A stretch of DNA of 37,222 nt from an uncultured virus (IMG/VR IMGVR_UViG_2049941000_000876). Its lineage: Duplodnaviria > Heunggongvirae > Uroviricota > Caudoviricetes. The stretch lies in the IMG/VR virus record IMGVR_UViG_2049941000_000876. One strand, written 5' to 3'. Positions 3,646 to 37,222 of this stretch are shown here, piece after piece. The position numbers and the translations under genes are program-made. Numbering within the stretch: position 1 is the first letter of the stretch; every line of letters begins with the position of its first letter. The notes under the pieces were generated by a model. That model did no database searches. It was not told the DNA's origin and saw nothing but the letters and a program-made list of their open reading frames with translations.

Positions 3646-4362
3646 ATGTATGGGTATATTTATAAAACTACAAATCTGTATAATGGCAAAATTTATATTG
3701 GTCAACATAGAAACTCTAAATTTAATCCTGATTACTATGGTAGCGGCATAAGACTTAATAATATAATTGCTAAATATGGCATTGAAAATTTTTGTGTTGA
3801 AATGCTGGAACCGTGTGAAACTGAGAAAGAATTAAATATTAAAGAGCAGTATTGGATAGCAAAACTAAATTCAATGGATAGGAATATAGGATATAATCTT
3901 ATGTCAGGCGGCTATAAAGTTAGAGGCATAAAATTATCAGAGCAGTCCAAACAAAGTATTAGTTCTACACTAAAAGAATACTTTAAAACGCATGATAACC
4001 CTAGAAAAGGTGTACATCTTACAGACACAACAAAAGAGAAGTTAAGACAGGCTAATCTCGGTAAAAAGTATTCAGACGAAGTAAGGGCAAAGCACAGAGG
4101 AAAAGTTGCTTGGAATAAAGGAACTCATCTTACAGATAAACAAAAGCAACATTTAAGAGAAGTTAATCTTGGTAAAATTGCCCATGATAAAAGGTCCCAT
4201 ATAATCTATCAATTAGATTTTAATGGTAATATAGTAAACTCATTTCCGTCTTTACGACAGGCATCAATAAATACTGGATTTAGCAGTATTTGTATTCGTA
4301 GAGTTTGCGAAGGAGTTAGAAAACAATCACATGGGTTTATATGGAAATATGATAAACCATAA
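3646..4362 (+). CDS. Free-standing GIY-YIG homing endonuclease with NUMOD3/NUMOD1-like modules
   Basis: GYIYKTTN...IYIGQH, YYGSG, EQYWI, GYN; repeated HLTDxxK..LR.. units; C-terminal FPSLRQAS...GFIWKY. Confidence 0.9.
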   Translation: MYGYIYKTTNLYNGKIYIGQHRNSKFNPDYYGSGIRLNNIIAKYGIENFCVEMLEPCETEKELNIKEQYWIAKLNSMDRNIGYNLMSGGYKVRGIKLSEQSKQSISSTLKEYFKTHDNPRKGVHLTDTTKEKLRQANLGKKYSDEVRAKHRGKVAWNKGTHLTDKQKQHLREVNLGKIAHDKRSHIIYQLDFNGNIVNSFPSLRQASINTGFSSICIRRVCEGVRKQSHGFIWKYDKP

Positions 4363-4378: not shown

Positions 4379-4639
4379 ATGGAAGGATATATTAAAATAG
4401 AGGAACTTGCTATGCGCATTGATTCTTCGGTGCAAACAATTAACAACTGGTATAAATGGAAAAGAGAAAATCCTGAACATGAACTTGCATCTCTTTTACC
4501 CGACTATACACAAGAAGGAAATAGGCAGACAAGATATTGGAGTACAAAAGATATATGGAAGCTTATTGAGTTTAAAACTGCTGTTGTACATGGTAGAAAC
4601 GGAATTATGGGCTCATCTAAAAGAAAGGAGAAAATTTGA
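4379..4639 (+). CDS. Small HTH DNA-binding protein
   Basis: AAGGAGG SD before ATG 4379; IEELAMRIDSSVQTINNWY helix-turn-helix pattern. Confidence 0.65.
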   Translation: MEGYIKIEELAMRIDSSVQTINNWYKWKRENPEHELASLLPDYTQEGNRQTRYWSTKDIWKLIEFKTAVVHGRNGIMGSSKRKEKI

Positions 4640-5070
4640 TGAGAAAGACTATTGATAATCCACAAAGCAACACATTTACAGAAACAGAGATACAAGACAA
4701 GCTCACGCATTTAATCAATGATTATATTATAAATAAAGAGCATGAGAAAGAATTTAAAGATGCCGCATCTGTTCAGAACACACAGATTAAAGTTATTATG
4801 TCAGAAATGAATCTTAGTGAATTTGAAACATCTACTGGCAAAGTTATTTTATCTGACAGAAAGACAGAAGATTTTAATGAGGAGAAACTTATTCAGTATC
4901 TTAAAGAAAGAGGTATTGAAAATGATATAGTCAAGACTAAAGAATATGTTGATTTTGATGCTCTTGAATCCGCTATTTATCACGAAAGAATTACAGGTGA
5001 TAATCTGAAAGATATGGAATCATGTAAGGTTGTTAAAGTAACACAGGTTCTTAGAATAAATAAGAAGTGA
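4636..5070 (+). CDS. Hypothetical protein
   Basis: 144-aa ORF overlapping the previous stop, AAAGGAG SD. Confidence 0.75.
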   Translation: MMRKTIDNPQSNTFTETEIQDKLTHLINDYIINKEHEKEFKDAASVQNTQIKVIMSEMNLSEFETSTGKVILSDRKTEDFNEEKLIQYLKERGIENDIVKTKEYVDFDALESAIYHERITGDNLKDMESCKVVKVTQVLRINKK

Positions 5071-5080
5071 GGTGATTTAT

Positions 5081-5188
5081 ATGTATTTGAATCCATTTGT
5101 AGCAGGTGTATTGTGCACAATTTTTACAGAAATGGGAATTGTTATTCTCTACGCAGTATTAAAGACAATAACAGGAGGTAAAAACTAA
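5081..5188 (+). CDS. Small membrane peptide (35 aa)
   Basis: GAGGTG SD; MYLNPFVAGVLCTIFTEMGIVILYAVLKTITGGKN; stop overlaps next ATG; below ORF-track cutoff. Confidence 0.7.
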   Translation: MYLNPFVAGVLCTIFTEMGIVILYAVLKTITGGKN

Positions 5189-5421
5189 TGGCTTATGAAG
5201 TAAAAGGTAAGACTACAAAAATAAATGCTGTATCAAGATGCGCAATTTCTGTACATAATAAAGGAACAGGAAAAGATAATTATTATACCATAGAATTATC
5301 AGAAGAAAGAGTGTTGCCGGAAGACGCCAATTTTGATTTAAATAAAGAATATGAAGCATTATTCAATTCAATCAATGGAGAAGTAGATAGGCAGATGGAA
5401 GATATAATTTCACAGCTATAA
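5188..5421 (+). CDS. Hypothetical protein
   Basis: AGGAGG SD; 77-aa ORF. Confidence 0.75.
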   Translation: MAYEVKGKTTKINAVSRCAISVHNKGTGKDNYYTIELSEERVLPEDANFDLNKEYEALFNSINGEVDRQMEDIISQL

Positions 5422-5432
5422 AATAACTCCTG

Positions 5433-5461
5433 TTTACAGATTACTATAATCATGTTATAGT
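5433..5461 (+). promoter_or_regulatory. Sigma-A-type promoter with extended -10
   Basis: TTTACA-17 nt-TATAGT with TG at 5453-5454. Confidence 0.75.
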
Positions 5462-5467
5462 ATGATT

Positions 5468-5557
5468 GTAAGTTGAATCTTGTCTTATTCATTCTTACAT
5501 CTCTTTTCAAATAGTGTGTTGTTTAGAAAAGCCATAGATAAAAGTCTATGGCTTTTC
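5468..5557 (+). ncRNA. Candidate trans-acting antisense sRNA
   Basis: Lies between promoter 5433-5461 and hairpin 5526-5557 with no plus-strand ORF; body is complementary to the AACAC...TTGAAAGGAG...ATG leaders elsewhere in the window; 5' end estimated. Confidence 0.6.
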
Positions 5558-5562
5558 ACTTT
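5526..5562 (+). terminator. Intrinsic terminator (possibly bidirectional)
   Basis: GAAAAGCCATAGA-taaaag-TCTATGGCTTTTC 13-bp inverted repeat. Confidence 0.85.
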
Positions 5563-5566
5563 CTAG

Positions 5567-5595
5567 TTTACAAAATTTTTATAATATGTTATAGT
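5567..5595 (+). promoter_or_regulatory. Sigma-A-type promoter with extended -10 for the replication operon
   Basis: TTTACA-17 nt-TATAGT with TG one base upstream of the -10. Confidence 0.78.
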
Positions 5596-5600
5596 ATATT

Positions 5601-5776
5601 CAGTCAATAAAACGACTTGCACATAATAAAAGGAGTAGCTACCTTCAATAAGATGTGCTATAATAACAATAAGTCAGTCGATGTAGTAGGACATCAACTG
5701 ATGCTCTTAACTGAATATCGACTGACAAGAAGTCCCTTACAAAGATGCCTACTCATCTGCGTATAGGGGCTTTCTT
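5601..5776 (+). promoter_or_regulatory. Structured 5' leader RNA of the replication operon
   Basis: Three hairpins, including the 12-bp stem 5673-5684/5715-5726; loop CCTACT complementary to AGTAGG and AGTAG upstream. Confidence 0.55.
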
Positions 5777-5806
5777 ATTTACAAAAAGAAGTGATGGAGA
5801 GAAAAT

Positions 5807-5956
5807 ATGTATAAAGATGTTTTAAGAATCAAAGCAGATGAAAATAATAACATAGCATTAGTAATTTATAGGGAACATCCAGATAATATTAGAGTGTTCA
5901 AAGAAGTTATAAAAGAATTGTCAAATTATATTAGAGAGCATAAGGAGAATAGATAA
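5807..5956 (+). CDS. Small hypothetical protein (49 aa) abutting the initiator gene
   Basis: GGAG SD; MYKDVLRIKA...HKENR; TAA immediately followed by ATG 5957. Confidence 0.6.
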   Translation: MYKDVLRIKADENNNIALVIYREHPDNIRVFKEVIKELSNYIREHKENR

Positions 5957-6847
5957 ATGGGGATTATAAGAGTTGCTAAAACTGATAATTACACTGTTAT
6001 GTCCAATTATCATCTTAGGGATAAATCACTTACACTAAAAGCTAAAGGATTGTTATCTTTAATGTTATCATTACCAGATGATTGGGATTACTCAATAGCT
6101 GGATTAGTTACACAAGTTAAAGAGGGAAGAACAGCAGTAACCTCAGCACTAGATGAACTAATAGAAAATAACTATGTTATTAGAGAAGCCGTTAGAAAAA
6201 ATGGTAGAATTTCAGATTGGAATTATACTGTATATGAGATGCCTACTGAGTTTGTTCTACCTTCAGAAAATCTGAAAGTAGAAAATCTAATAGTAGAAAA
6301 TCAAGTAGTAGAAAATATGCAACAACTAAATACTGATATAAACAAAATAAAGAATAACAAAATAAAGAATAACAAAAGCACCGGAACCGGTGCGCTTACT
6401 AAACATCCTAGAAATTTCTCCAAAGAAAGACTTGTAGATGATTTAAAGAGTGGTGAAATTATAGATGAGCAGAAAAAAGAAAAAAAGAAAATTTCTGAAT
6501 ACGATAAATGTTTAGCTGAGATAGATAATAGATATGAGGATCCGAATGTTTATATGTCCTTAGTGAATCATTTAGAGTGGTCATATAATAGTAAAGACCC
6601 TAAGAGAATCAAGTCTGCAAAGATATATAGTAAGAGGCTTGATGAGCTTGATAAACTTACAGGCGATAAAGTAAAGATTGTCCAGCAGAGTATAGATAAA
6701 CAGTGGCATTGTTTCTATGAATTGCAGACTACAGAGAAGAGATATGGCAACACGATAGATAATTCAGTTATCAAAGGTCAGACGTTATCAAGAGAAGAGG
6801 CAAAACAAAGATTAGCTGAGTATGCAGAGAGGAATGGTGTGATATGA
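5957..6847 (+). CDS. Phage replication initiator (N-terminal winged HTH)
   Basis: NYTVMSN..LRDKSLTLKAKGLL..MLSLPDDW N-terminus; internal iterons; adjacent to a DnaC-like gene. Confidence 0.85.
   Translation: MGIIRVAKTDNYTVMSNYHLRDKSLTLKAKGLLSLMLSLPDDWDYSIAGLVTQVKEGRTAVTSALDELIENNYVIREAVRKNGRISDWNYTVYEMPTEFVLPSENLKVENLIVENQVVENMQQLNTDINKIKNNKIKNNKSTGTGALTKHPRNFSKERLVDDLKSGEIIDEQKKEKKKISEYDKCLAEIDNRYEDPNVYMSLVNHLEWSYNSKDPKRIKSAKIYSKRLDELDKLTGDKVKIVQQSIDKQWHCFYELQTTEKRYGNTIDNSVIKGQTLSREEAKQRLAEYAERNGVI
6265..6393 (+). repeat. Putative replication origin: iterons, A-rich repeats and palindrome
   Basis: Four AGAAAAT units at 15-bp period (6265, 6280, 6295, 6310); AACAAAATAAAGAAT x2.5 (6341-6377); GCACCGG-aa-CCGGTGC (6378-6393). 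Confidence 0.7.
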
Positions 6848-7497
6848 CAGATGAGAAGAAGCGTGAGTTAAGAAGTGCCGCACAGTTAGAGATATTAGAG
6901 TTAAGCAATATCCCAGAGATTTATTGGGATGAGATAAAGATGTTTGTGCCTGATAATGATAAACAGGCATATATGAGACTAGATGAAATAAAGAATAACA
7001 TTATAGAGCTTAGTGAGCCTAGAATGGATATACAGAATCTTCTCATATGTAGTGATAAGACAGGTAATGGTAAAACATCGTGGGCATTAAAGATACTGCA
7101 ATACTTTGCCTTTAAATCAGCACAACAATTATACTACCAGCATGATGAAGATGACTGTTGGTGCTTCTTTGTTACTGTAGCTGATTATGTTGCATTAAGC
7201 AAAGAGTATGATTCCAAGCGGAGAGTAAAATTCTTTCATATGCAAGATATGATAGAGAAAGCAAGGATTGTTGTCTTTGATGATGTAGCAGTCGGAGAGT
7301 ATTCAAGAGCAGAATATATGGCACTATATAATGCAATTGATAAGCGTGTACTGAATAAACAGTTTTGTATCTTCACATCCAATTTTGTTGATAGAGATGA
7401 TTCAGTATTATCCAATAGACTAGGTACAAGACTTGTTGATAGAATTTATGATACATCAGAAAAAATAGTTCTTAATGGTGAGGGGGTAAGACATTGA
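6844..7497 (+). CDS. DnaC/IstB-like AAA+ helicase loader
   Basis: Walker A variant SDKTGNGKT, Walker B VVFDD, IFTSN, RLVDRI. Confidence 0.85.
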   Translation: MTDEKKRELRSAAQLEILELSNIPEIYWDEIKMFVPDNDKQAYMRLDEIKNNIIELSEPRMDIQNLLICSDKTGNGKTSWALKILQYFAFKSAQQLYYQHDEDDCWCFFVTVADYVALSKEYDSKRRVKFFHMQDMIEKARIVVFDDVAVGEYSRAEYMALYNAIDKRVLNKQFCIFTSNFVDRDDSVLSNRLGTRLVDRIYDTSEKIVLNGEGVRH

Positions 7498-10547: not shown

Positions 10548-11252
10548 ATGAGTAAGACAAACGTAGCAACTAATAGTGAGCCTGGTATTATCGGGCAGAT
10601 GTATGAGGACAGAAAGTCCAAGAAACGAGGTGTATTAGAGAGTAGAGAGACAAAGTATAAAACTCTAATGTTTAGAGCAGACGATGGCAGTTCATTTAAT
10701 ATTACATATGCTACATTCAGAAGCAATTGGAGGAAGTATGTTGGGGATGAGATTATACAGACATCTACTCAGGTTGAAGAACAAAAGACAGAAGAAAAGA
10801 AGAGAGAACAGACAGCTAAAAAGACTGTTGAAAGCAAGTCAGAAGTGGTGAAGATGACTACAGAAGAGAAAGTTAAGAAAGTCAGAGCCATTGATGAACT
10901 TGTAATCTCAAAGATTAAGAATATCGGAACAGACCTTATAAAGACAACAAGAACAAGCAGAGGCTGTGTGATTGTTCAGTATAAGAAGAAAACTCTTTTT
11001 GAAATCTGGACTAAGTTTGGTCTTGATAAGTTTGATATCTGTGTGCTTGATGATGTAGCCGCATCAGATGAAAAGAAGTTTAAGGCTATTATTGCAAAGA
11101 CAGATTATACAAACAAAGAGAAGTGGCATCTTCCTCATCTATTTAGAATTGGTGTTGATGCTTTTGATGGAAAAGTAGATGCTCTTTTGGAGCTTGCTAA
11201 TAATTATGCTAGTGCGAAAGCAGAGGCTACTAAAAAGAAGGAGGAGAAGTAA
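10548..11252 (+). CDS. Hypothetical two-domain Lys-rich protein
   Basis: 234-aa ORF downstream of a promoter. Confidence 0.8.
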   Translation: MSKTNVATNSEPGIIGQMYEDRKSKKRGVLESRETKYKTLMFRADDGSSFNITYATFRSNWRKYVGDEIIQTSTQVEEQKTEEKKREQTAKKTVESKSEVVKMTTEEKVKKVRAIDELVISKIKNIGTDLIKTTRTSRGCVIVQYKKKTLFEIWTKFGLDKFDICVLDDVAASDEKKFKAIIAKTDYTNKEKWHLPHLFRIGVDAFDGKVDALLELANNYASAKAEATKKKEEK

Positions 11253-12020: not shown

Positions 12021-12093
12021 TGCGCCGTAGTACAAATGGTTAGTACATAGCACTTTGACTGCTAGAATAAGAGTTCGATTCTCTTCGGTGTAG
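12021..12093 (+). tRNA. tRNA-Gln (UUG), CCA not encoded
   Basis: Acceptor TGCGCCG/CGGTGTA; D stem GTAC/GTAC; anticodon arm TAGCA-CTTTGAC-TGCTA; T arm AAGAG-TTCGATT-CTCTT. Confidence 0.9.
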
Positions 12094-12571: not shown

Positions 12572-12654
12572 AGCTTGTTAGCTCAATTGGAAGAGCACCG
12601 TGCGCACATAAAAACAACGAGAGGTGTATAGAGGTTCGAATCCTCTACAAGCTG
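12572..12654 (+). ncRNA. tRNA-like element C (degenerate anticodon arm)
   Basis: AGCTTGT/ACAAGCT acceptor; GCTC-AATTGGAA-GAGC D arm; AGAGG-TTCGAAT-CCTCT T arm; unpaired oversized anticodon region. Confidence 0.75.
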
Positions 12655-13132: not shown

Positions 13133-15386
13133 GATAAAGAACACTAAAAGTAATGACATTGATATTTTACAGAAATCAAAAATGAGAAATAAAATTGTTA
13201 CCACTACAAATAAAAGTAGTGGTAATATTGCTAATAGAATAAAAATAATCGTGGCTAAAGTAGAGACCGCACTTGGTAAATATAAAGATGAAACTTTACT
13301 CATTCAAGATGAGCAAGTGCTCCATGATTATATTGATAAGTGTATTGCTAATGGAATATATGGAATAGATACAGAGACAACAGGACTTAATCCTTTATTA
13401 GATGAGTTGGTTGGTGTAAGTATTTATACACCTGGAGAGAAAACAGCTTATATACCTATAAATCATGTATCGTATGTTACTGGACAAAAAGTAAAGAATC
13501 AGTTATCATTAGAAGTAGTAGGAAAAGAACTTGCAAGATTACTTGGTATAAATTGTGATATGTTCAATGCCCCATTTGATATCAGATTTATCAAGAATCA
13601 TACAGGTACAAGATTAAAATGTACATGGGACGCATCTATAGCTTCAAGATGTTTAAATGAGAATGAGCCAAATAAGGGCTTAAAGAAGTTACATCAGAAA
13701 TATGTATTAAAGGGTCAGGAAGATGCTTTTAAGTTTGATGACCTATTTAAGGGTATAAGCTTTGCACTTATTCCTATCAAGACAGCTTCATTATATGCAG
13801 CCCATGATGCAAAGATTACATATGAGTATGCAGAATATCAGAGAAAATATCTTAGATTAGACCACGAAAGAGAAGATATGCGAAACATAGCTTGGGTATT
13901 TCATAACATAGAGATGCCTATAGTGGATGTTGTAATAGATATGGAAGACACTGGCATAGAGTTTGACATGGAATATAATAAAGAGCTTAAAGAAAAGTAT
14001 CATGCCTTGTTGAATGAGAAAGAAGAGAACTTCCATAAGCTATGCGAGATGTATAGAGAAGAGATTGATAATTATGATGGAAAAGTAAAGCTAGATGACC
14101 CAATAAATATTCAGTCTGTACCTCAGTTGCAAGTGTTACTTTATGATATTGCAAAATTACCTTTGTTCTTTGACAAGAGGCAGAAAAAAGAAACAAGAAG
14201 TACAGCAGAAGAAGCACTAAAGAAATTAAAGAATCCTATCGCAGATGCCGTATTAGAGTATCGTTCATTCTCAACATTAGTAAGTACATTTATAGATAAA
14301 CTTCCAGAGTGTGTCAATCCTAATGATGGACGTATTCATTGTAAGTTTAATCAATATGGAGCAGACACAGGAAGATTTTCTAGTCAGGATCCAAATATGC
14401 AGAATATCCCATCCCATGATAAAAATATCAGAAAGATGTTCAGAGCTAGTAAAGGATATGTAATGATGTCCGCAGACTTCTCACAGCAAGAGGTTAAAGG
14501 TATGGCTCAGATGTGCGGAGATGAAACAATGGCAGAAGCTTTTAGACAAGGCAAAGATTTCTACGCACAGATAGCAAGTGTGGCATTTAATTATCCATAT
14601 GAAGATTGTTTAGAGTTCAGACCAGATGGCACAACTAATCCAGAGGGTAAAGAGAGAAGAAGTCAAGCAAAGTCTATTCTGTTGGGTATAAACTATGGAC
14701 GTGGGGCTGCAAGTATCGCTGAACAGCTGGGATGTACAAAAGAGAAAGCAGAACAAATAAAAGAAGATGTATTTTTAGGATTTCCAGCTATAGCTAAGTT
14801 TGAACAAGATAGTTTTGAGATGGCAGAGACATTAGGTTATGTAACTACACTTTGGGGCAGAAAAAGAAGATTGCCAGATATGATGTTGCCAGATTATGAG
14901 TTTCAATGGGCAGATAAATCTGCATCAGATGATCCACTTGATTTTGACAGCGAGTTGCCAGAAGAAGTGCCTGATGAGATTATCAATAAATATCTTAGAA
15001 AACTATCCAAATGTTGGGGCGCTCAGAAGCGAAAGATATTTGAAGAGGCTAATGCAGAGGGTGTGTGGATTATAGATAACACCAAGAAGAAAGCAGATGC
15101 TAGTAGGCAGTGTGTTAATGCTCGTATTCAAGGCACAGCCGCTGACCAAGCTAAGTTAGCTATGATTGCATTACATGATGATGAAAGATTGAAAGAATTA
15201 GGCTTTAGAATACTCATTCCTGTACACGATGAAGTTATAGCAGAATGCCCTAAGGAAAATGCAAAAGAAGTGGCAGAAAGATTCGCTTATATAATGTCTC
15301 ATTCAAGCGGTGAGAAGTTTACAATTCCCATTTCATGTGACGTTGCCATTTCAGAACAGTGGTATGGAGAGGAAATAAAACTATGA
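13116..15386 (+). CDS. polA: Family A DNA polymerase (3'-5' exonuclease + polymerase; no 5'-3' exonuclease domain)
   Basis: DTETTG, FNAPFD, YAAHDA exonuclease motifs; TGRFSS..PNMQNIP; ADFSQQE (A); KSILLGINYG (B); VHDE (C); start 13116 chosen from GAGG spacing (13101 is the alternative). Confidence 0.95.
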   Translation: MQPLFEIKNTKSNDIDILQKSKMRNKIVTTTNKSSGNIANRIKIIVAKVETALGKYKDETLLIQDEQVLHDYIDKCIANGIYGIDTETTGLNPLLDELVGVSIYTPGEKTAYIPINHVSYVTGQKVKNQLSLEVVGKELARLLGINCDMFNAPFDIRFIKNHTGTRLKCTWDASIASRCLNENEPNKGLKKLHQKYVLKGQEDAFKFDDLFKGISFALIPIKTASLYAAHDAKITYEYAEYQRKYLRLDHEREDMRNIAWVFHNIEMPIVDVVIDMEDTGIEFDMEYNKELKEKYHALLNEKEENFHKLCEMYREEIDNYDGKVKLDDPINIQSVPQLQVLLYDIAKLPLFFDKRQKKETRSTAEEALKKLKNPIADAVLEYRSFSTLVSTFIDKLPECVNPNDGRIHCKFNQYGADTGRFSSQDPNMQNIPSHDKNIRKMFRASKGYVMMSADFSQQEVKGMAQMCGDETMAEAFRQGKDFYAQIASVAFNYPYEDCLEFRPDGTTNPEGKERRSQAKSILLGINYGRGAASIAEQLGCTKEKAEQIKEDVFLGFPAIAKFEQDSFEMAETLGYVTTLWGRKRRLPDMMLPDYEFQWADKSASDDPLDFDSELPEEVPDEIINKYLRKLSKCWGAQKRKIFEEANAEGVWIIDNTKKKADASRQCVNARIQGTAADQAKLAMIALHDDERLKELGFRILIPVHDEVIAECPKENAKEVAERFAYIMSHSSGEKFTIPISCDVAISEQWYGEEIKL

Positions 15387-16228
15387 ACACAGCAGTATTC
15401 ATATGTACACATGGAAGACCAAATTCACAACATACATTACATCTATTGAGAAATAGTGGATATACTGGTAAAATATATTTGATAGTAGATGATGAGGACA
15501 ATACACTTCAAGAGTTAATGTTAAAGACTTATGGGCAAGCTCAGATAGTAGAATTTTGTAAGCAAGAATATATAACTAAATCTGACACCGGAACGAATGA
15601 AAATCAGCGTAAGTGTATTTTATACGCTAAGAATTTTTGCGAAGACCTGGCGCAAAATATGAAGCTGGACGCATATGTTATAGCTGATGATGATATATTA
15701 AATTTTAGATTTAGATATCCTGAAGATGGTAGTTTGAAAAGTCAGAAAGTATTGACAACAATGGATGAAGTAATGGATGCTTATTATCAGGTCATGATTG
15801 ACTGTGATATGGTAGCAACAGGCTTTGGATTTACTCAATTCTATTTCTCAGGTTCAGAATCATTTGGCAATGAGAATATGCAAAAGTACAGAGTGCCTTA
15901 TAATTTTGTATTTAGAAATGCGAAGCATAGAGTAGATTGGATGAGTTGGTTCGGTGAAGATATAATAACAGCAGTATACTATGGAAGAATAGGTCAGTTG
16001 TGGACAGCACTACCATATGTTCAGCAAGAGATTGTAGCTTTAGCATCAGCAAGTGGTGGAATGAAAGATACTTATGACGGAAACTCTAGTGCAAGATTAG
16101 CTATGCAAAATGTTATGTATCTTCCTGCAGAGCTTAAAGCATATCTATATAAGGGCAAATTTATGGCATCTATAAAGAGAGAGCAAGCTTTTCCAAAGCT
16201 AATCAGTTCCAGTTTTAAGAAGCAATAA
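15383..16228 (+). CDS. Putative DNA glycosyltransferase (TET-associated/GREB1-like GT-A family)
   Basis: ATGA-coupled to polA; ICTHGRP, IVDDED, YAKN, ADDDI, GED, SGGMKDTY, FPKLIS; paralog of 16697..17563. Confidence 0.7.
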   Translation: MNTAVFICTHGRPNSQHTLHLLRNSGYTGKIYLIVDDEDNTLQELMLKTYGQAQIVEFCKQEYITKSDTGTNENQRKCILYAKNFCEDLAQNMKLDAYVIADDDILNFRFRYPEDGSLKSQKVLTTMDEVMDAYYQVMIDCDMVATGFGFTQFYFSGSESFGNENMQKYRVPYNFVFRNAKHRVDWMSWFGEDIITAVYYGRIGQLWTALPYVQQEIVALASASGGMKDTYDGNSSARLAMQNVMYLPAELKAYLYKGKFMASIKREQAFPKLISSSFKKQ

Positions 16229-16272: not shown

Positions 16273-16710
16273 ATGAAGCAATTATTCGCAGACGAAAGTG
16301 TTAAAAATAATCCAATGGGAGATGATACAAAGTATTCAAGAGCAATAAGAGTACCTCAGTATGAGCCTAAGAATGAGAAGCCTATACTCGCATCAGTGTA
16401 TGATATCAATAAATATAGCAAGCTAATGGCTAGAATAAATAAATCTAATGTATCAGAAGAAGAGAAGAAATTTCTTAAATTCGCCGCATCAAGACATATC
16501 GTATTTAATTATAGTAAGATAGCAGATTATTATGCCCATGCAAGCGCAGAGATGCAGGAGCTTATGGAAGAATCAGCACTTGTTATTCTTGATATAGATG
16601 ATGCCATAGCTAATGGATATATAGCTCTTTCAGAAAAGATGCAACAACTTATTGAAGAAGAGAAAGCTAGGGCTGCAAAAGCTAAGGAGAATAAAGATGA
16701 GCAAACTTGA
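16273..16710 (+). CDS. Helical accessory protein between the two glycosyltransferases
   Basis: AAAGGAG SD before ATG 16273; PQYEP, RHIVFNYSKIADYYAHA, SALVILDIDDAIANGY. Confidence 0.75.
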   Translation: MKQLFADESVKNNPMGDDTKYSRAIRVPQYEPKNEKPILASVYDINKYSKLMARINKSNVSEEEKKFLKFAASRHIVFNYSKIADYYAHASAEMQELMEESALVILDIDDAIANGYIALSEKMQQLIEEEKARAAKAKENKDEQT

Positions 16711-17563
16711 TGATTTTGCAGTAATGATATTATGTCATGGTAGACCAGACAATACACCAACTTTTGATACACTAAGAAAGTATGGATATACAGGTAGAAT
16801 TATTATAGTTTGTGATGATGAGGATAAAACATTATCTGAGTATCAGAGAATATATCCAGAAGTACAAGTATTCAGTAAGGATTATGTAGCTACATATATG
16901 GACCCTATGGATAATTCTAATGATAGAAGATGTGCAGTATATGCCAGAAATGCTTGTTTCGATATAGCAGAAAGGTTAGGATTAAAATATTTTGCGGAAT
17001 ATGATGACGATTACACTTCACATCCATATAGATGGGAAGAAAATGGTGTTCTCTACAGAAGTTTACTTGCTAACTTGGATGAAGTGTTTAAAGCGTATAT
17101 GGACTTTATGGAGACAAGCGAAGAGATATATTCAATCGCATTCGGACAACCGGGAGACTTTATTGGTGGTTGCGGAAGTAGATTACATAGAGAAAGATAT
17201 AGACGAAAATGTATGAACAGTTGGATATGTAAGACAGATAGACGTTTTACATTTAATGGTAGAATGAATGATGACCAGCTTACATATAGTTTATATGGTA
17301 TGCGTGGAAAGATATTTCTTACATTCGACTTTATGATGATAGACCAGCCTGAAACACAATCAGTAAAGGGCGGAATGACAGATATGTATTTAGGGGCAGG
17401 TACTTATCAGAAAACATTTTTCTCGATTATGTGTTGTCCATCATTTATAAAAGCCGGTATGATGGGAGATAGATATTATAGAATACATCATAAAGTATCA
17501 CATGAAAATGCTTATCCAAAGATAATATCAAGTAAATATAAGAAAAAAGGAGAAGAAGGATGA
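16697..17563 (+). CDS. Putative DNA glycosyltransferase (TET-associated/GREB1-like GT-A family)
   Basis: AAGGAG SD; ILCHGRP, VCDDED, YARN, YDDDY, GRMNDD, KGGMTDMY, RIHH, YPKIIS. Confidence 0.72.
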   Translation: MSKLDDFAVMILCHGRPDNTPTFDTLRKYGYTGRIIIVCDDEDKTLSEYQRIYPEVQVFSKDYVATYMDPMDNSNDRRCAVYARNACFDIAERLGLKYFAEYDDDYTSHPYRWEENGVLYRSLLANLDEVFKAYMDFMETSEEIYSIAFGQPGDFIGGCGSRLHRERYRRKCMNSWICKTDRRFTFNGRMNDDQLTYSLYGMRGKIFLTFDFMMIDQPETQSVKGGMTDMYLGAGTYQKTFFSIMCCPSFIKAGMMGDRYYRIHHKVSHENAYPKIISSKYKKKGEEG

Positions 17564-21886: not shown

Positions 21887-21925
21887 GTTTACAGAGTTAA
21901 AAATACACTATGAAAGAGAGATGAT

Positions 21926-22081
21926 ATGAGCAAAAATTACAGATGTACTAAATGTGTTCACTTTAAGAAACACTATTCACCGTCACTTCATATGTATATA
22001 AGCACTTGTAAAGCACCAAGACCATTACCAATTGGATGTGTTGGTGTGTACAAGAAGAAAGAGGAGAAAACCAATGGCTAA
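21926..22081 (+). CDS. Small Cys-containing protein (51 aa)
   Basis: MSKNYRCTKC...; first ORF after the promoter; below ORF-track cutoff. Confidence 0.55.
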   Translation: MSKNYRCTKCVHFKKHYSPSLHMYISTCKAPRPLPIGCVGVYKKKEEKTNG

Positions 22082-27180: not shown

Positions 27181-27223
27181 GATATATGTAAATGATATAT
27201 AACACATTTTGAAAGGAGAAAAG

Positions 27224-27406
27224 ATGAATAAGCCAACGAAAGAACAGTTTGAAGAGTATGTAAGAATCAGAAATAGTGGTATAACTAATATGTGGGATAT
27301 CACATTTATAGTAAGCATCTCTAATACAGGACTCACAGAAGATAATTGTTTTTATATCATGGATTATTTTGATGAGTTAGCAGAAGAGTATGAGGTGGCA
27401 GTATGA
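27224..27406 (+). CDS. Small DUF5049-like protein
   Basis: AAAGGAG SD; IRNSGITNMWD motif. Confidence 0.6.
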   Translation: MNKPTKEQFEEYVRIRNSGITNMWDITFIVSISNTGLTEDNCFYIMDYFDELAEEYEVAV

Positions 27407-33058: not shown

Positions 33059-33298
33059 ATGGCAGCAGAATTTCCATTAGTTTGTCCATTTTGTGATGAG
33101 TTGGCATACAGAAAAAAGGGTTATCAGCAGATAGTACTTCCTCATAAGATTTATACTCCTCGTATCTGTGCTATGGGTCATGAATTTTATTCCGTAGAAG
33201 AAATACCAGAGGATCAATCGGCGATAGTAAAAGAAATAAGGGAGATAAAGAGGGATGCAATCGAGTGGAAGAAACAACTTAGAAATCCTGAAACATGA
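33059..33298 (+). CDS. Second zinc-ribbon protein
   Basis: AGGAGG SD; CPFC...RICAMGHEFYSVE. Confidence 0.65.
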   Translation: MAAEFPLVCPFCDELAYRKKGYQQIVLPHKIYTPRICAMGHEFYSVEEIPEDQSAIVKEIREIKRDAIEWKKQLRNPET

Positions 33299-33914
33299 TT
33301 TAGATGCACTAATGAAATGGAGAACTATTCCACATCAAGAGACAGTAGATACAGGATATTTAGATTTGTGCAGGAAGTTTAATGCCAGGTATTTAAACTA
33401 CCGGATGCCACTTTTTGAAGAACGCAAATTTGCTCCATTTACTCCAAAAGTAGATTCAGATAAATCATTGTTATTATTTAGTGGTGGTAAAGTAAGTCTT
33501 GCTACAGCCTTGTGGTTGAAAGAAATGGGCAAAGATATTGAGCTTCTATATTTTTATGATAAAGAATATGAGGCTGTACTGGATCTTATGGGCGTGAAAC
33601 AGTTAGGAATACCTTATACTGCAAAATATGTTAAAATCCCGGATAATGAGTTTGCTGGAATGCACATGGTCCATTATGCTCTGGAGTTTGCTTTAGAGAA
33701 ACACTTAAAACCCTCCATTTATATGGGTTACTTTGAGTTTGCCTTGATGGACAATAATCCAAAGCGAAACTGGCGGTATAGCAAAGATTTTATAGAGGCA
33801 TATGCCAACGTGGCAAAGAAGTATATTGAGGGTGTAGAGGTACTTGGGGTATTGCCAAATTATGCTGTTGTCGATGATATATTGTCAAAATATAATTATG
33901 AAGCAATACAGTAA
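33255..33914 (+). CDS. PP-loop (QueC-like) fold protein with variant motif
   Basis: LLLFSGGKVSLATAL resembles SGGxDS; no C-terminal QueC Cys cluster. Confidence 0.55.
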   Translation: MQSSGRNNLEILKHDLDALMKWRTIPHQETVDTGYLDLCRKFNARYLNYRMPLFEERKFAPFTPKVDSDKSLLLFSGGKVSLATALWLKEMGKDIELLYFYDKEYEAVLDLMGVKQLGIPYTAKYVKIPDNEFAGMHMVHYALEFALEKHLKPSIYMGYFEFALMDNNPKRNWRYSKDFIEAYANVAKKYIEGVEVLGVLPNYAVVDDILSKYNYEAIQ

Positions 33915-34017: not shown

Positions 34018-34104
34018 AATATTCCTGTTGAAGTATAGTTATTCCTACTATATATTATGATTATAAACAATAAAACAACACATTCTTGAAAGGAGAATAA
34101 AGAG
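34018..34104 (+). promoter_or_regulatory. Repeated early promoter/leader cassette, copy 1
   Basis: AATATTCCTGTTGAAGT; TTGAAG-17-TATATT; ATAAACAATAA; AACAC; TTGAAAGGAG. Confidence 0.75.
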
Positions 34105-34296
34105 ATGACAGATTTTGAAAAGGTAATGGTACATAGAGACAACATGACTGCTGAGGAAGCTAGAAATGAAAGAATGAGGGCAGCCGAAGAACTTGATTTG
34201 CTTGTAGCTCAAGGAGCAAGCTATGATGAGGTTGAAGATATGTTGATGGATGACTATGGATTAGAAATGGATTATATTTTAGATTTATTACTTTAA
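34105..34296 (+). CDS. Small acidic hypothetical protein
   Basis: AAAGGAG SD; ends YGLEMDYILDLLL. Confidence 0.75.
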   Translation: MTDFEKVMVHRDNMTAEEARNERMRAAEELDLLVAQGASYDEVEDMLMDDYGLEMDYILDLLL

Positions 34297-34512: not shown

Positions 34513-34593
34513 TATTCCTGTTGAAGTGTGTTGTTGCCTATGATAATATATAGTCATAAACAATAACACACTTCAATTATGAAAGGAGATATT
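34511..34593 (+). promoter_or_regulatory. Repeated early promoter/leader cassette, copy 2
   Basis: AATATTCCTGTTGAAGT; ATAAACAATAACACAC; TGAAAGGAG. Confidence 0.72.
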
Positions 34594-34902
34594 ATGCAGA
34601 AACAAAAAGACCATACCTATAAGAGAATGATAGTAGGAGATACCGCAAAGTACAGATTGATAGATGTATATAAGGATATCGCTATCTATGAAGAAGTTAC
34701 TCCTTTAGGATATGTACTTCATCAGTCTTGGTTAATGGTTAATCAGCACCTACACATATTTATACCATCTTACAATAATATGTGCAAAGAGGAACTATTG
34801 GACGCTATTGACGATTATAAAGATTGTGGTAAGTTTGGTTTTACAGGTTTTATGAGACTTCAAGGATTTATTATTCATCCAAATGGAAAGGATACATTAT
34901 GA
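34594..34902 (+). CDS. Hypothetical protein
   Basis: AAAGGAG SD before ATG 34594. Confidence 0.7.
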   Translation: MQKQKDHTYKRMIVGDTAKYRLIDVYKDIAIYEEVTPLGYVLHQSWLMVNQHLHIFIPSYNNMCKEELLDAIDDYKDCGKFGFTGFMRLQGFIIHPNGKDTL

Positions 34903-35483: not shown

Positions 35484-35563
35484 TTCCTCTTGAAGTCATT
35501 TAACTCCTAGTATATAGTATAGTTATAAACAATAACACACTACATTATTGAAAGGAGTTAAAT
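35484..35563 (+). promoter_or_regulatory. Repeated early promoter/leader cassette, copy 3
   Basis: TTCCTCTTGAAGT; TTGAAG-17-TATAGT; ATAAACAATAACACAC; TTGAAAGGAG. Confidence 0.75.
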
Positions 35564-35809
35564 ATGACAAAAAAGGAAAAAGAAGTTTATAAGGATAAGA
35601 AGCCAGTTGCTGTATTTGGTATGAGTAACTTTGGCGGGATAGAAGTGATGGATATTCTTTATGGTATCGAAGATTATGTAGTTTACAGATGGAACTTTGG
35701 TACACCAACAGAAGTGCATAAGGCAAAGATTAACTATGGAGCTAATCATCATAGTTTTAGAACATCAGCAGGATATAGTGTTCGATTGGATGAGTGCATG
35801 AGAGTGTAA
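35564..35809 (+). CDS. Small hypothetical protein
   Basis: AAAGGAG SD; 81 aa. Confidence 0.72.
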   Translation: MTKKEKEVYKDKKPVAVFGMSNFGGIEVMDILYGIEDYVVYRWNFGTPTEVHKAKINYGANHHSFRTSAGYSVRLDECMRV

Positions 35810-36537: not shown

Positions 36538-36590
36538 GATACCAGAAGACCAATCGGCGATAGTAAAAGAGATAAGGGAGATAAAGAGAG

Positions 36591-37222
36591 ATGCAATCGA
36601 GTGGAGAAAACAACTTAAAAATTCTGATGAGTGACCTCGATAATCTCAGCAGATATCACACATATCCGGTATCAGTAGATATTGGATATTTAGATTTATG
36701 CCGCAAACTTAATGGACGATATAAGAATTATGAGATGCCACTATTTGAGGAACGAAAGATAGATATTTATAAACCCACTTGTGATGTCAAAGATAAGGCT
36801 TATGTTTTATTTAGCGGTGGAAAAGTAAGTCTTGCTACAGCGTTATGGCTAAGAGAAATGGGTAAAGATGTAGAGTTATTATACCTTACGGATGATATTG
36901 AGACCAGGACTGAGGTGTTAGATTTAGCTGAAAAGTTCCATTTACCTATTACAACTCTTATACGAACGATTCCTGATAATGAATATGCTGGTATGTACAT
37001 GGCGCATTACGCCTTGGATTATGTGGTGTCTGAGCATAATAAACCCTCCATTTATATGGGCTATTTTGAGTTTGCCTTGATGGATCATAATAAGAAAAAG
37101 GATTGGAGATATTGTAAGGAGTTCATTGAATCTTATTCCAATGTGGCTAAGAAGTATATCAAGGATGCAGAAGTGCTTGGTGTGATGCCAGATTATGCCG
37201 TAGTGAATGATATATTATTAAA
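36591..37222 (+). CDS. Second, divergent copy of the PP-loop protein (3' truncated by window)
   Basis: Manual translation MQSSGENNLKIL...YVLFSGGKVSLATALWLREMGKDVE; colinear with 33255..33889. Confidence 0.75.
   Translation, partial: MQSSGENNLKILMSDLDNLSRYHTYPVSVDIGYLDLCRKLNGRYKNYEMPLFEERKIDIYKPTCDVKDKAYVLFSGGKVSLATALWLREMGKDVELLYLTDDIETRTEVLDLAEKFHLPITTLIRTIPDNEYAGMYMAHYALDYVVSEHNKPSIYMGYFEFALMDHNKKKDWRYCKEFIESYSNVAKKYIKDAEVLGVMPDYAVVNDILL

Follow-up and report, generated by a model that had tools for sequence, protein, structure and literature searches.

Known phage antisense RNAs mostly control a single gene and come mostly from temperate coliphages. The sar and OOP RNAs are transcribed opposite the gene that they control and are perfectly complementary to that one target, and the c4 RNA functions in the immunity of temperate phages, shares an operon with icd/ant, its only target, and base-pairs via loops. 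The early transcript of the satellite phage P4 has, in its leader, repeated sites to which the phage's CI RNA is complementary; this RNA arises by processing of the very transcript under its control, whose transcription it terminates prematurely, and its role is in prophage immunity. RsaE/RoxS of the Firmicutes uses an unpaired C/U-rich motif to pair with the Shine-Dalgarno (SD) sequences of several mRNAs and has its own promoter and intrinsic terminator. In phage T4, one factor, RegA or RegB, shuts off many early mRNAs via the translation-initiation region (TIR) or the SD. The accessible part of one source describes c4 of phages P1 and P7 as a phage small RNA that has short complementarity around the ribosome-binding site of its own mRNA and blocks its translation (PMC12197685, which cites Citron and Schuster 1990). 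The same part presents sar of P22 and OOP of λ as short phage antisense RNAs that lower phage gene expression by pairing, and a table there gives OOP as cis and sar as trans (PMC12197685). In a non-exhaustive survey of the literature on phage regulatory RNAs, we found no trans-acting RNA that addresses a whole phage gene family, and none is described in the accessible part of PMC12197685.

Here, we analyze a predicted small RNA (sRNA) encoded in a 37,222-nt stretch of DNA from an uncultured virus, which we call the window. Judged from its sequence, the locus is a real, conserved, and previously undescribed small-RNA gene, and on balance we favor the reading that the predicted RNA is a trans-acting antisense sRNA that would block translation of a regulon of cassettes carried by the same phage. 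The locus has the features of the trans-encoded base-pairing sRNA class: a promoter/terminator unit, no conserved reading frame, a conserved and accessible seed with variable flanks, and complementarity to TIRs. It resembles the P4 CI RNA in being a small phage RNA complementary to leader sites of the phage's own transcripts. RsaE/RoxS differs in being chromosomal and having metabolic targets, and the predicted sRNA has no sequence or Rfam match to it.

Setting and anatomy of the small-RNA unit

All long ORFs in the window, which has a GC content of 35%, lie on the plus strand. The sRNA unit belongs to a replication module that encodes a SNF2 helicase and a GIY-YIG endonuclease; the replication-initiation proteins (HTH initiator, IstB-like loader, DnaB, and primase), directly upstream of whose genes the unit stands; and PolA, two TET-associated glycosyltransferases, a clamp, RecU, and RecA. 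The glycosyltransferase genes (15383–16225 and 16697–17560) match PF20691 (1.3e-23 and 3.3e-28, respectively), which hints at hypermodified DNA bases in the phage. The GIY-YIG gene (3646–4362), between the SNF2 helicase gene and the next gene, is absent from the same place in the related contig G001 and thus fits a mobile homing endonuclease insertion. Elsewhere in the window, a ~219-aa gene with no Pfam match lies in a diverged tandem duplication (33203–33889 and 36539–37222; segments 76–91% identical, 3.33 kb apart), and Rfam reports a second tRNA at 12572–12654 (46 bits); ARAGORN gives only tRNA-Gln at 12021–12093.

The public runs that contain the sequence (n = 14) are all of DNA or unknown type, and the DNA runs are labelled bovine gut; our comparison was made with contigs. 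Named phages gave no DNA match for 4600–6900 in near mode or for 5100–6000 in distant mode, and the closest DnaB proteins of named phages, those of Clostridium phages, share no more than 34.6% identity with that of the window. The phage that carries the locus is a low-GC phage of the rumen and is probably virulent.

An earlier note on this DNA had described a promoter and a terminator enclosing a short unit, and both elements are confirmed by our scans (Table 1). By consensus match, promoter P1 is near-consensus, with a −10 box of TATAGT that carries a TG extension, and it is one of only three sites (5433, 5567, and 10458) that satisfy a stricter promoter pattern when the 37-kb window is scanned on both strands. 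The strong terminator hairpin lies ~65 nt from P1, and a 2-kb scan found three terminator-like sites compared to 0.4 ± 0.6 in shuffled sequences. The predicted sRNA has a folding energy of −27.7 kcal/mol (z = −6.66), and none of 200 shuffles was equally stable. In the window, the seed is unpaired in both the MFE and the centroid folds and has a mean unpaired probability of 0.72, compared to 0.26 for the remainder of the RNA.

The unit lies in ~385 nt of non-coding DNA between the stop codon of a 77-aa gene (5188–5421) and the next coding genes (5807 onward). The earlier note had described it as free of plus-strand ORFs, which is correct only in part: a 28-aa ORF with a TTG start exists (5480–5566), but no SD was seen upstream of it, and it is not kept in G001, which has a different ORF there. 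No protein-coding frame is conserved on either the plus or the minus strand. In Rfam 15, the sRNA falls in no family; the best match within 5300–5900 scored 22.4 bits against a cut-off of 60, and only two hits, both tRNAs, passed across the window.

A second promoter of the same type as P1, here called P2 (5567–5595), is followed by a predicted ~190-nt RNA that extends to 5792 and contains four hairpins, the last of which is a terminator immediately ahead of a 49-aa ORF at 5807, with the replication genes following that ORF. This P2 RNA is kept in five genomes, where 14 of its 57 pairs are changed on both sides and 86.5% of positions are paired, compared to 80.1% in shuffles (0 of 500 as high) and 36–49% with the partners slid. 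It has no Rfam match and could be a second sRNA or a cis-acting leader or attenuator of the replication operon. Between the sRNA and the P2 RNA, the related contig G002 (L037, 1265–1480) carries a third promoter-like unit with a T tract after it; small transcription units thus seem to form a variable island at this locus.

Table 1. Positions in the window of the predicted sRNA unit and of its candidate target leaders.
Feature	Position	Strand	Description
Promoter P1 of the predicted sRNA	5433..5461	+	TTTACA −35, 17-nt spacer, extended −10 TGTTATAGT; 10/12 consensus matches
Predicted sRNA, ~90–95 nt	5468..5562	+	Putative start 6–8 nt past the −10; putative end in the T tract
5′ hairpin, varying between relatives	5468..5498	+	Predicted fold; identity 0.63
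Single-stranded seed	5495..5526	+	Anti-SD stretch ~5500–5510, then leader-box complement ~5514–5526
Intrinsic terminator hairpin	5526..5557	+	14 pairs, loop of 4; A tract before, T-rich tail after
Target cassette 1 (candidate)	34022..34107	+	TTCCTGTTG promoter element, leader box, SD, ATG 34105; repeat family D2; duplex −27.4 kcal/mol, rank 1/71
Target cassette 2 (candidate)	34515..34596	+	ATG 34594; duplex −25.3 kcal/mol, rank 2/71
Target cassette 3 (candidate)	35484..35566	+	ATG 35564; duplex −23.7 kcal/mol, rank 4/71
Candidate target leader	27201..27226	+	Consensus TTGACA-17-TATAAT promoter ahead; ATG 27224; duplex −23.5 kcal/mol, rank 5/71
Candidate target leader	21905..21928	+	ATG 21926; duplex −24.5 kcal/mol, rank 3/71

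Conservation among related phages

A protein-guided search recovered G001, a 75-kb IMG/VR contig that is syntenic with the window and 68.6% identical to it over the sRNA region. A two-sequence-alignment search returned only G001, plus L008 in a metagenome collection, which is probably the same phage, and a single-protein search with the IstB-like loader gave no matches. Searching IMG/VR for the architecture of the target cassettes produced 20 hits on 10 contigs, and three of the five large cassette-bearing contigs contain the sRNA locus (G002, G003, and G004; E = 1.8e-23 to 3.3e-38); cassette-bearing G005 gave no match to the locus, and G006 gave a weak match only (E = 0.134). A scan of IMG/VR with the seed pattern yielded 29 hits, only five of which have the promoter: the already known G001–G004 and one additional contig of 5.6 kb (L057). 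The remaining 24 hits, in which the promoter is absent, look like unrelated antisense views of gene starts and were rejected as sRNA relatives. At the distant replication-protein loci L002–L006, the promoter–terminator–promoter layout was not seen.

The sRNA unit is syntenic in G001–G004 and L057, giving six members with the window. All six share a layout of promoter, 5′ stem-loop, unpaired pyrimidine-/GU-rich stretch, and terminator, in which the sequences of the stem-loop and the terminator differ, and by consensus match both a P1-type promoter and a terminator are kept in every member. Over the 15 pairs, the promoter (0.81) and the seed (0.82) had higher mean pairwise identities than the 5′ part (0.63) and the terminator (0.61); all six members come from one narrow clade, and shared ancestry inflates these apparent levels of conservation. 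In a five-sequence alignment, 8 of the 13 pairs in the terminator helix are changed on both sides, and 80% of the terminator cells are paired, compared to 69% in shuffles (0 of 500 as high) and 53–62% with the partners slid. This profile, with high conservation of promoter and seed and low conservation of the stems, is that expected of a base-pairing sRNA.

Relative to shuffles, fold stability had z values of −4.1 to −6.7 in four of five members and −2.2 in G004. The seed is unpaired in the folds of the window and G001 and partly paired in those of G002, where the anti-SD falls within a small hairpin, and of G003, which has an alternative fold. In run X5, a diverged DNA variant shows none of its listed differences within 5419–5562, although 21 differences plus 18 gaps fall in 5153–5310 and ~12 differences in 5563–5800. 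In the variant of X7, a single base of the −10 box is changed to another good −10 base. The X5 variant also has 106 other letters in place of the 108 nt at 5310–5419, the 3′ end of the 77-aa gene.

Complementarity to cassette leaders

Three 74-nt repeats in the window (starting at 34022, 34515, and 35484; 72–80% alike) each contain a TTCCTGTTG element, a −10-like box, an A/C-rich leader box, and GAAAGGAG ahead of an ATG. The candidate targets, at 21.9, 27.2, and 34–35.6 kb, are on the same strand as the RNA gene; this is not the arrangement of a cis-encoded antisense RNA of the sar/OOP type. By the promoter motif alone, the relatives carry four to eight cassettes each. The genes behind the cassettes are small (n = 6 in the window), and the six cassette proteins of the window matched no family of known function in Pfam or PHROGs.

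The TTCCWGTTG element stands upstream of the cassette −10 boxes (the three window repeats and loci L014–L033) and occurs together with leader and SD at 20 places on 10 IMG/VR contigs. As its distance from the best −10 box varies between phages, this element may serve as a binding site for an activator or an alternative factor and not as an ordinary −35. A search of the relatives detected no sigma factor, leaving the promoter classes without assignment to time classes. Around the −10 box of cassette 2, there is an inverted repeat (34521–34576; 28-nt arms, 82% complementary) whose left arm has the GU-rich run of the sRNA seed. The dyad is shared by the G003 ortholog of this cassette (L020), and at the same place a dyad of other sequence is found in a cassette of G001 (G001rc 4254). 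The cassette 2 repeat could serve as an operator; alternatively, it could act as a cis-antisense element in transcripts that read through it.

The earlier note had read the reverse complement of 5480–5525 as a mirror of five leaders (at 34073, 35534, 34565, 27201, and 21905). All of these strings are present at those positions, and an 11-nt pairing with one G:U that it described is correct as read. It had also pointed to a complement of the start codon (5480–5492) and to a 13-nt pairing, again with one G:U, to the start at 10548. Both are present, but they sit in the 5′ hairpin, which is not conserved and is different in every relative, and they are probably specific to this phage or the product of chance.

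Pairing energies were computed by RNAduplex with target accessibility ignored. When the window seed (5495–5527) was paired with 71 predicted TIRs, the best five were exactly the five leaders named above (−23.5 to −27.4 kcal/mol), and none of 150 dinucleotide shuffles matched either the observed minimum or the top-five mean; in a control set of 176 internal coding windows, the mean was −11.6 and the minimum −22.1 kcal/mol. For G001, 1 of 150 shuffles was as good as the observed minimum and none as good as the top-five mean, and for G002 none of 100 shuffles was as good by either measure. The minimum TIR energies of G003 and G004 were ordinary, with 29 and 20 of 100 shuffles as good, respectively, and their top-five means were equaled by 8 and 3 of 100 shuffles.

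Defining cassettes by the TTCCWGTTG promoter motif alone makes the definition independent of the leader. By this definition, cassettes paired better than other TIRs in all five genomes, by 12.2, 11.1, 11.0, 7.5, and 6.8 kcal/mol, and these advantages were reached by 0, 0, 0, 0, and 1 of 50 shuffles, respectively; in G004, none of the five motif-defined cassettes ranked among the top five TIRs. We also split the RNA. Pairing of the box half with the leader upstream of the SD was equaled by none of 100 shuffles in the window, G001, and G002, by 5 of 100 in G003, and by 16 of 100 in G004. Pairing of the anti-SD half with the SD and start was equaled by 4, 1, 3, 3, and 3 of 100 shuffles in the five genomes, part of this signal being generic, as CU-rich RNAs pair with any strong SD and the anti-SD half also pairs with strong SDs outside the cassettes. 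Both halves of the RNA contribute to pairing. Thus, beyond-chance complementarity to TIRs encoded elsewhere is present in every genome, strong in three and modest in two (G003 and G004), where statistics other than the motif-defined one, among them the unremarkable whole-TIR minima and the box-half pairing, are weaker.

The complement of each RNA resembles a leader of the same phage over the region between about +1 and the SD. Complementarity ends where the leader begins and, in G001 and G002, tracks the phage-specific first bases of the leader. Covariation between the sRNA and the leader boxes, which the earlier note had proposed to look for, holds for part of the set: among the RNAs compared, the cognate one pairs best with the phage's own cassettes in three of five genomes (the window, G001, and G002) but not in G003 or G004. 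With seeds of unequal length, the cognate RNA was the stronger partner for nine of nine G001 leaders and four of six window leaders. At one position of the SD complement, all six RNAs have A, in contrast to the G of the listed cassettes (GAAAAGAG or GAAAGAAG compared to GAAAGGAG). This change keeps the predicted RNA pairing as a G:U but would weaken an SD on the minus strand, and its presence in all six members indicates that the RNA gene has not simply been homogenised with the cassettes.

Alternatives, proposed mechanism, and related systems

The complement of a leader and SD could also be an inverted gene cassette, in which a minus-strand leader, SD, and start codon (TTG at 5510 or ATG at 5492) serve a small protein. 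In five genomes, an ORF does open at the same TTG/ATG inside the anti-SD stretch, three of the products begin MKEV, and the window ORF spans 75 aa (5283–5510). We nevertheless regard this reading as highly improbable. The five ORFs are 75, 16, 14, 35, and 21 aa long, their products are alike in the first few residues only, and these first codons are invariant at the nucleotide level, with no third-position variation. No SD was seen in the 20 nt upstream of each minus-strand start in the five genomes, a hairpin with T-rich sequence after it on both strands stands directly upstream, and the one minus-strand promoter-like site listed in the interval, a weak 9/12 match (5472–5443), is downstream of both candidate starts. 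In the window, moreover, the ORF runs antisense through the well-formed gene at 5188–5421. The combination of minus-strand promoter, SD, and conserved ORF was therefore not found, and the conserved and translated minus-strand ORF from 5492 that the earlier note had named as counting against an sRNA is absent. A constraint on the DNA itself is improbable too, but less so. On this account, the A/C-rich box would be bound as an operator by a phage DNA-binding protein positioned at +1 of the cassette promoters; the copy found in inverted orientation between P1 and P2 would be either a further operator or what is left of an inverted leader, and the transcript would have no function of its own. Inverted boxes in the promoter spacer of one cassette per phage, forming dyads around the −10 box, speak for an operator; they include the cassette 2 dyad (34521–34548 with 34549–34576, 82% complementary), its counterpart in the orthologous G003 cassette, and the dyad of different sequence in G001. 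However, a dyad is present in only one of the three window cassettes and, in G001, in one of the listed cassettes. An operator also leaves unexplained the inverted SD, which is kept in all six members with a G:U-compatible change, and the frame of strong promoter and covarying terminator found in every phage. An inert relic would not be expected to equal the promoter in conservation, as the seed does (0.82, compared to 0.61–0.63 for the stems).

The remaining alternative accepts a real sRNA and places its main job elsewhere: on host mRNAs via the anti-SD, on the downstream replication operon, or in a P1–terminator attenuator that feeds P2 and the replication genes, with the likeness to the leaders secondary. 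The position of the unit directly upstream of the HTH initiator, IstB-like loader, DnaB, and primase genes suits such a job, as do the second promoter and the conserved structured RNA, ending in another terminator, that come next, and the pairing of the anti-SD half with non-cassette SDs. We consider it unlikely, however, as the highest conservation within the RNA is found in the box half, a part dispensable for pairing with a generic SD target, and this half is specifically complementary to cassette leaders (0 of 100 shuffles in three genomes). P2 is a full promoter in its own right, so an attenuator's read-through from P1 is not required. Pairing of the sRNA with the neighboring P2 RNA is ordinary in five genomes (ranks 21/72, 26/120, 100/131, 7/93, and 25/128), and the P2 RNA was rejected as its partner.

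If the RNA is a trans-acting repressor of the cassettes, as we favor, host RNA polymerase would start at P1 and stop at the terminator ~90 nt on, and the product would consist of the variable 5′ hairpin, ~30 nt of conserved unpaired sequence, and the terminator hairpin. This unpaired sequence is a near full-length antisense copy of the cassette 5′ untranslated leader: the 3′ half of the seed would pair with the A/C-rich box at the start of the mRNA, and the 5′ half with the SD (GAAAGGAG). The ribosome would then no longer have access to the SD, and the resulting duplex could be cleaved by a double-strand RNase. Translation of the entire cassette set would then be shut off together, as a timing switch in lytic growth.

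The earlier note had proposed that one RNA silences the cassette regulon, which it assumed to be early, either as a temporal switch or for superinfection immunity. Silencing of the regulon is consistent with a conserved, stand-alone, non-coding unit in six phages and with its complementarity to own-phage leaders and SDs, from which we infer repression. Superinfection immunity is unlikely: neither a tyrosine integrase nor a serine recombinase was found in the four relatives examined, three of which are complete, making a lytic timing role likelier than lysogenic immunity. More tentatively, a single 'master' antisense RNA might be the RNA counterpart of T4 RegA/RegB, recognizing the shared leader of up to ~10 independently promoted small-gene cassettes, pairing all the way from the 5′ end of the mRNA to the SD inclusive, and silencing the whole set at a fixed point of infection; together with the adjoining 190-nt RNA and the third unit of G002, it would form a small-RNA control island heading the replication operon. 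If true, this lytic phage of an uncultured rumen bacterium would possess a compact, programmable timing device, and the uniformity of the cassette leaders would be explained.

Among known systems, the predicted sRNA is closest in logic to c4 of P1/P7 and to RegA and RegB of T4. Compared to c4, the sRNA gene has its own promoter and terminator, lies 16–29 kb from several separately transcribed targets, and occurs in phages in which no integrase was found. Compared to sar and OOP, the predicted sRNA is encoded away from its candidate targets, has imperfect complementarity, and has many of them. RegA and RegB are proteins, a translational repressor and an endoribonuclease, respectively, and do not recognize their mRNAs by base pairing; the logic, in which one factor would act on many mRNAs together, is the same.
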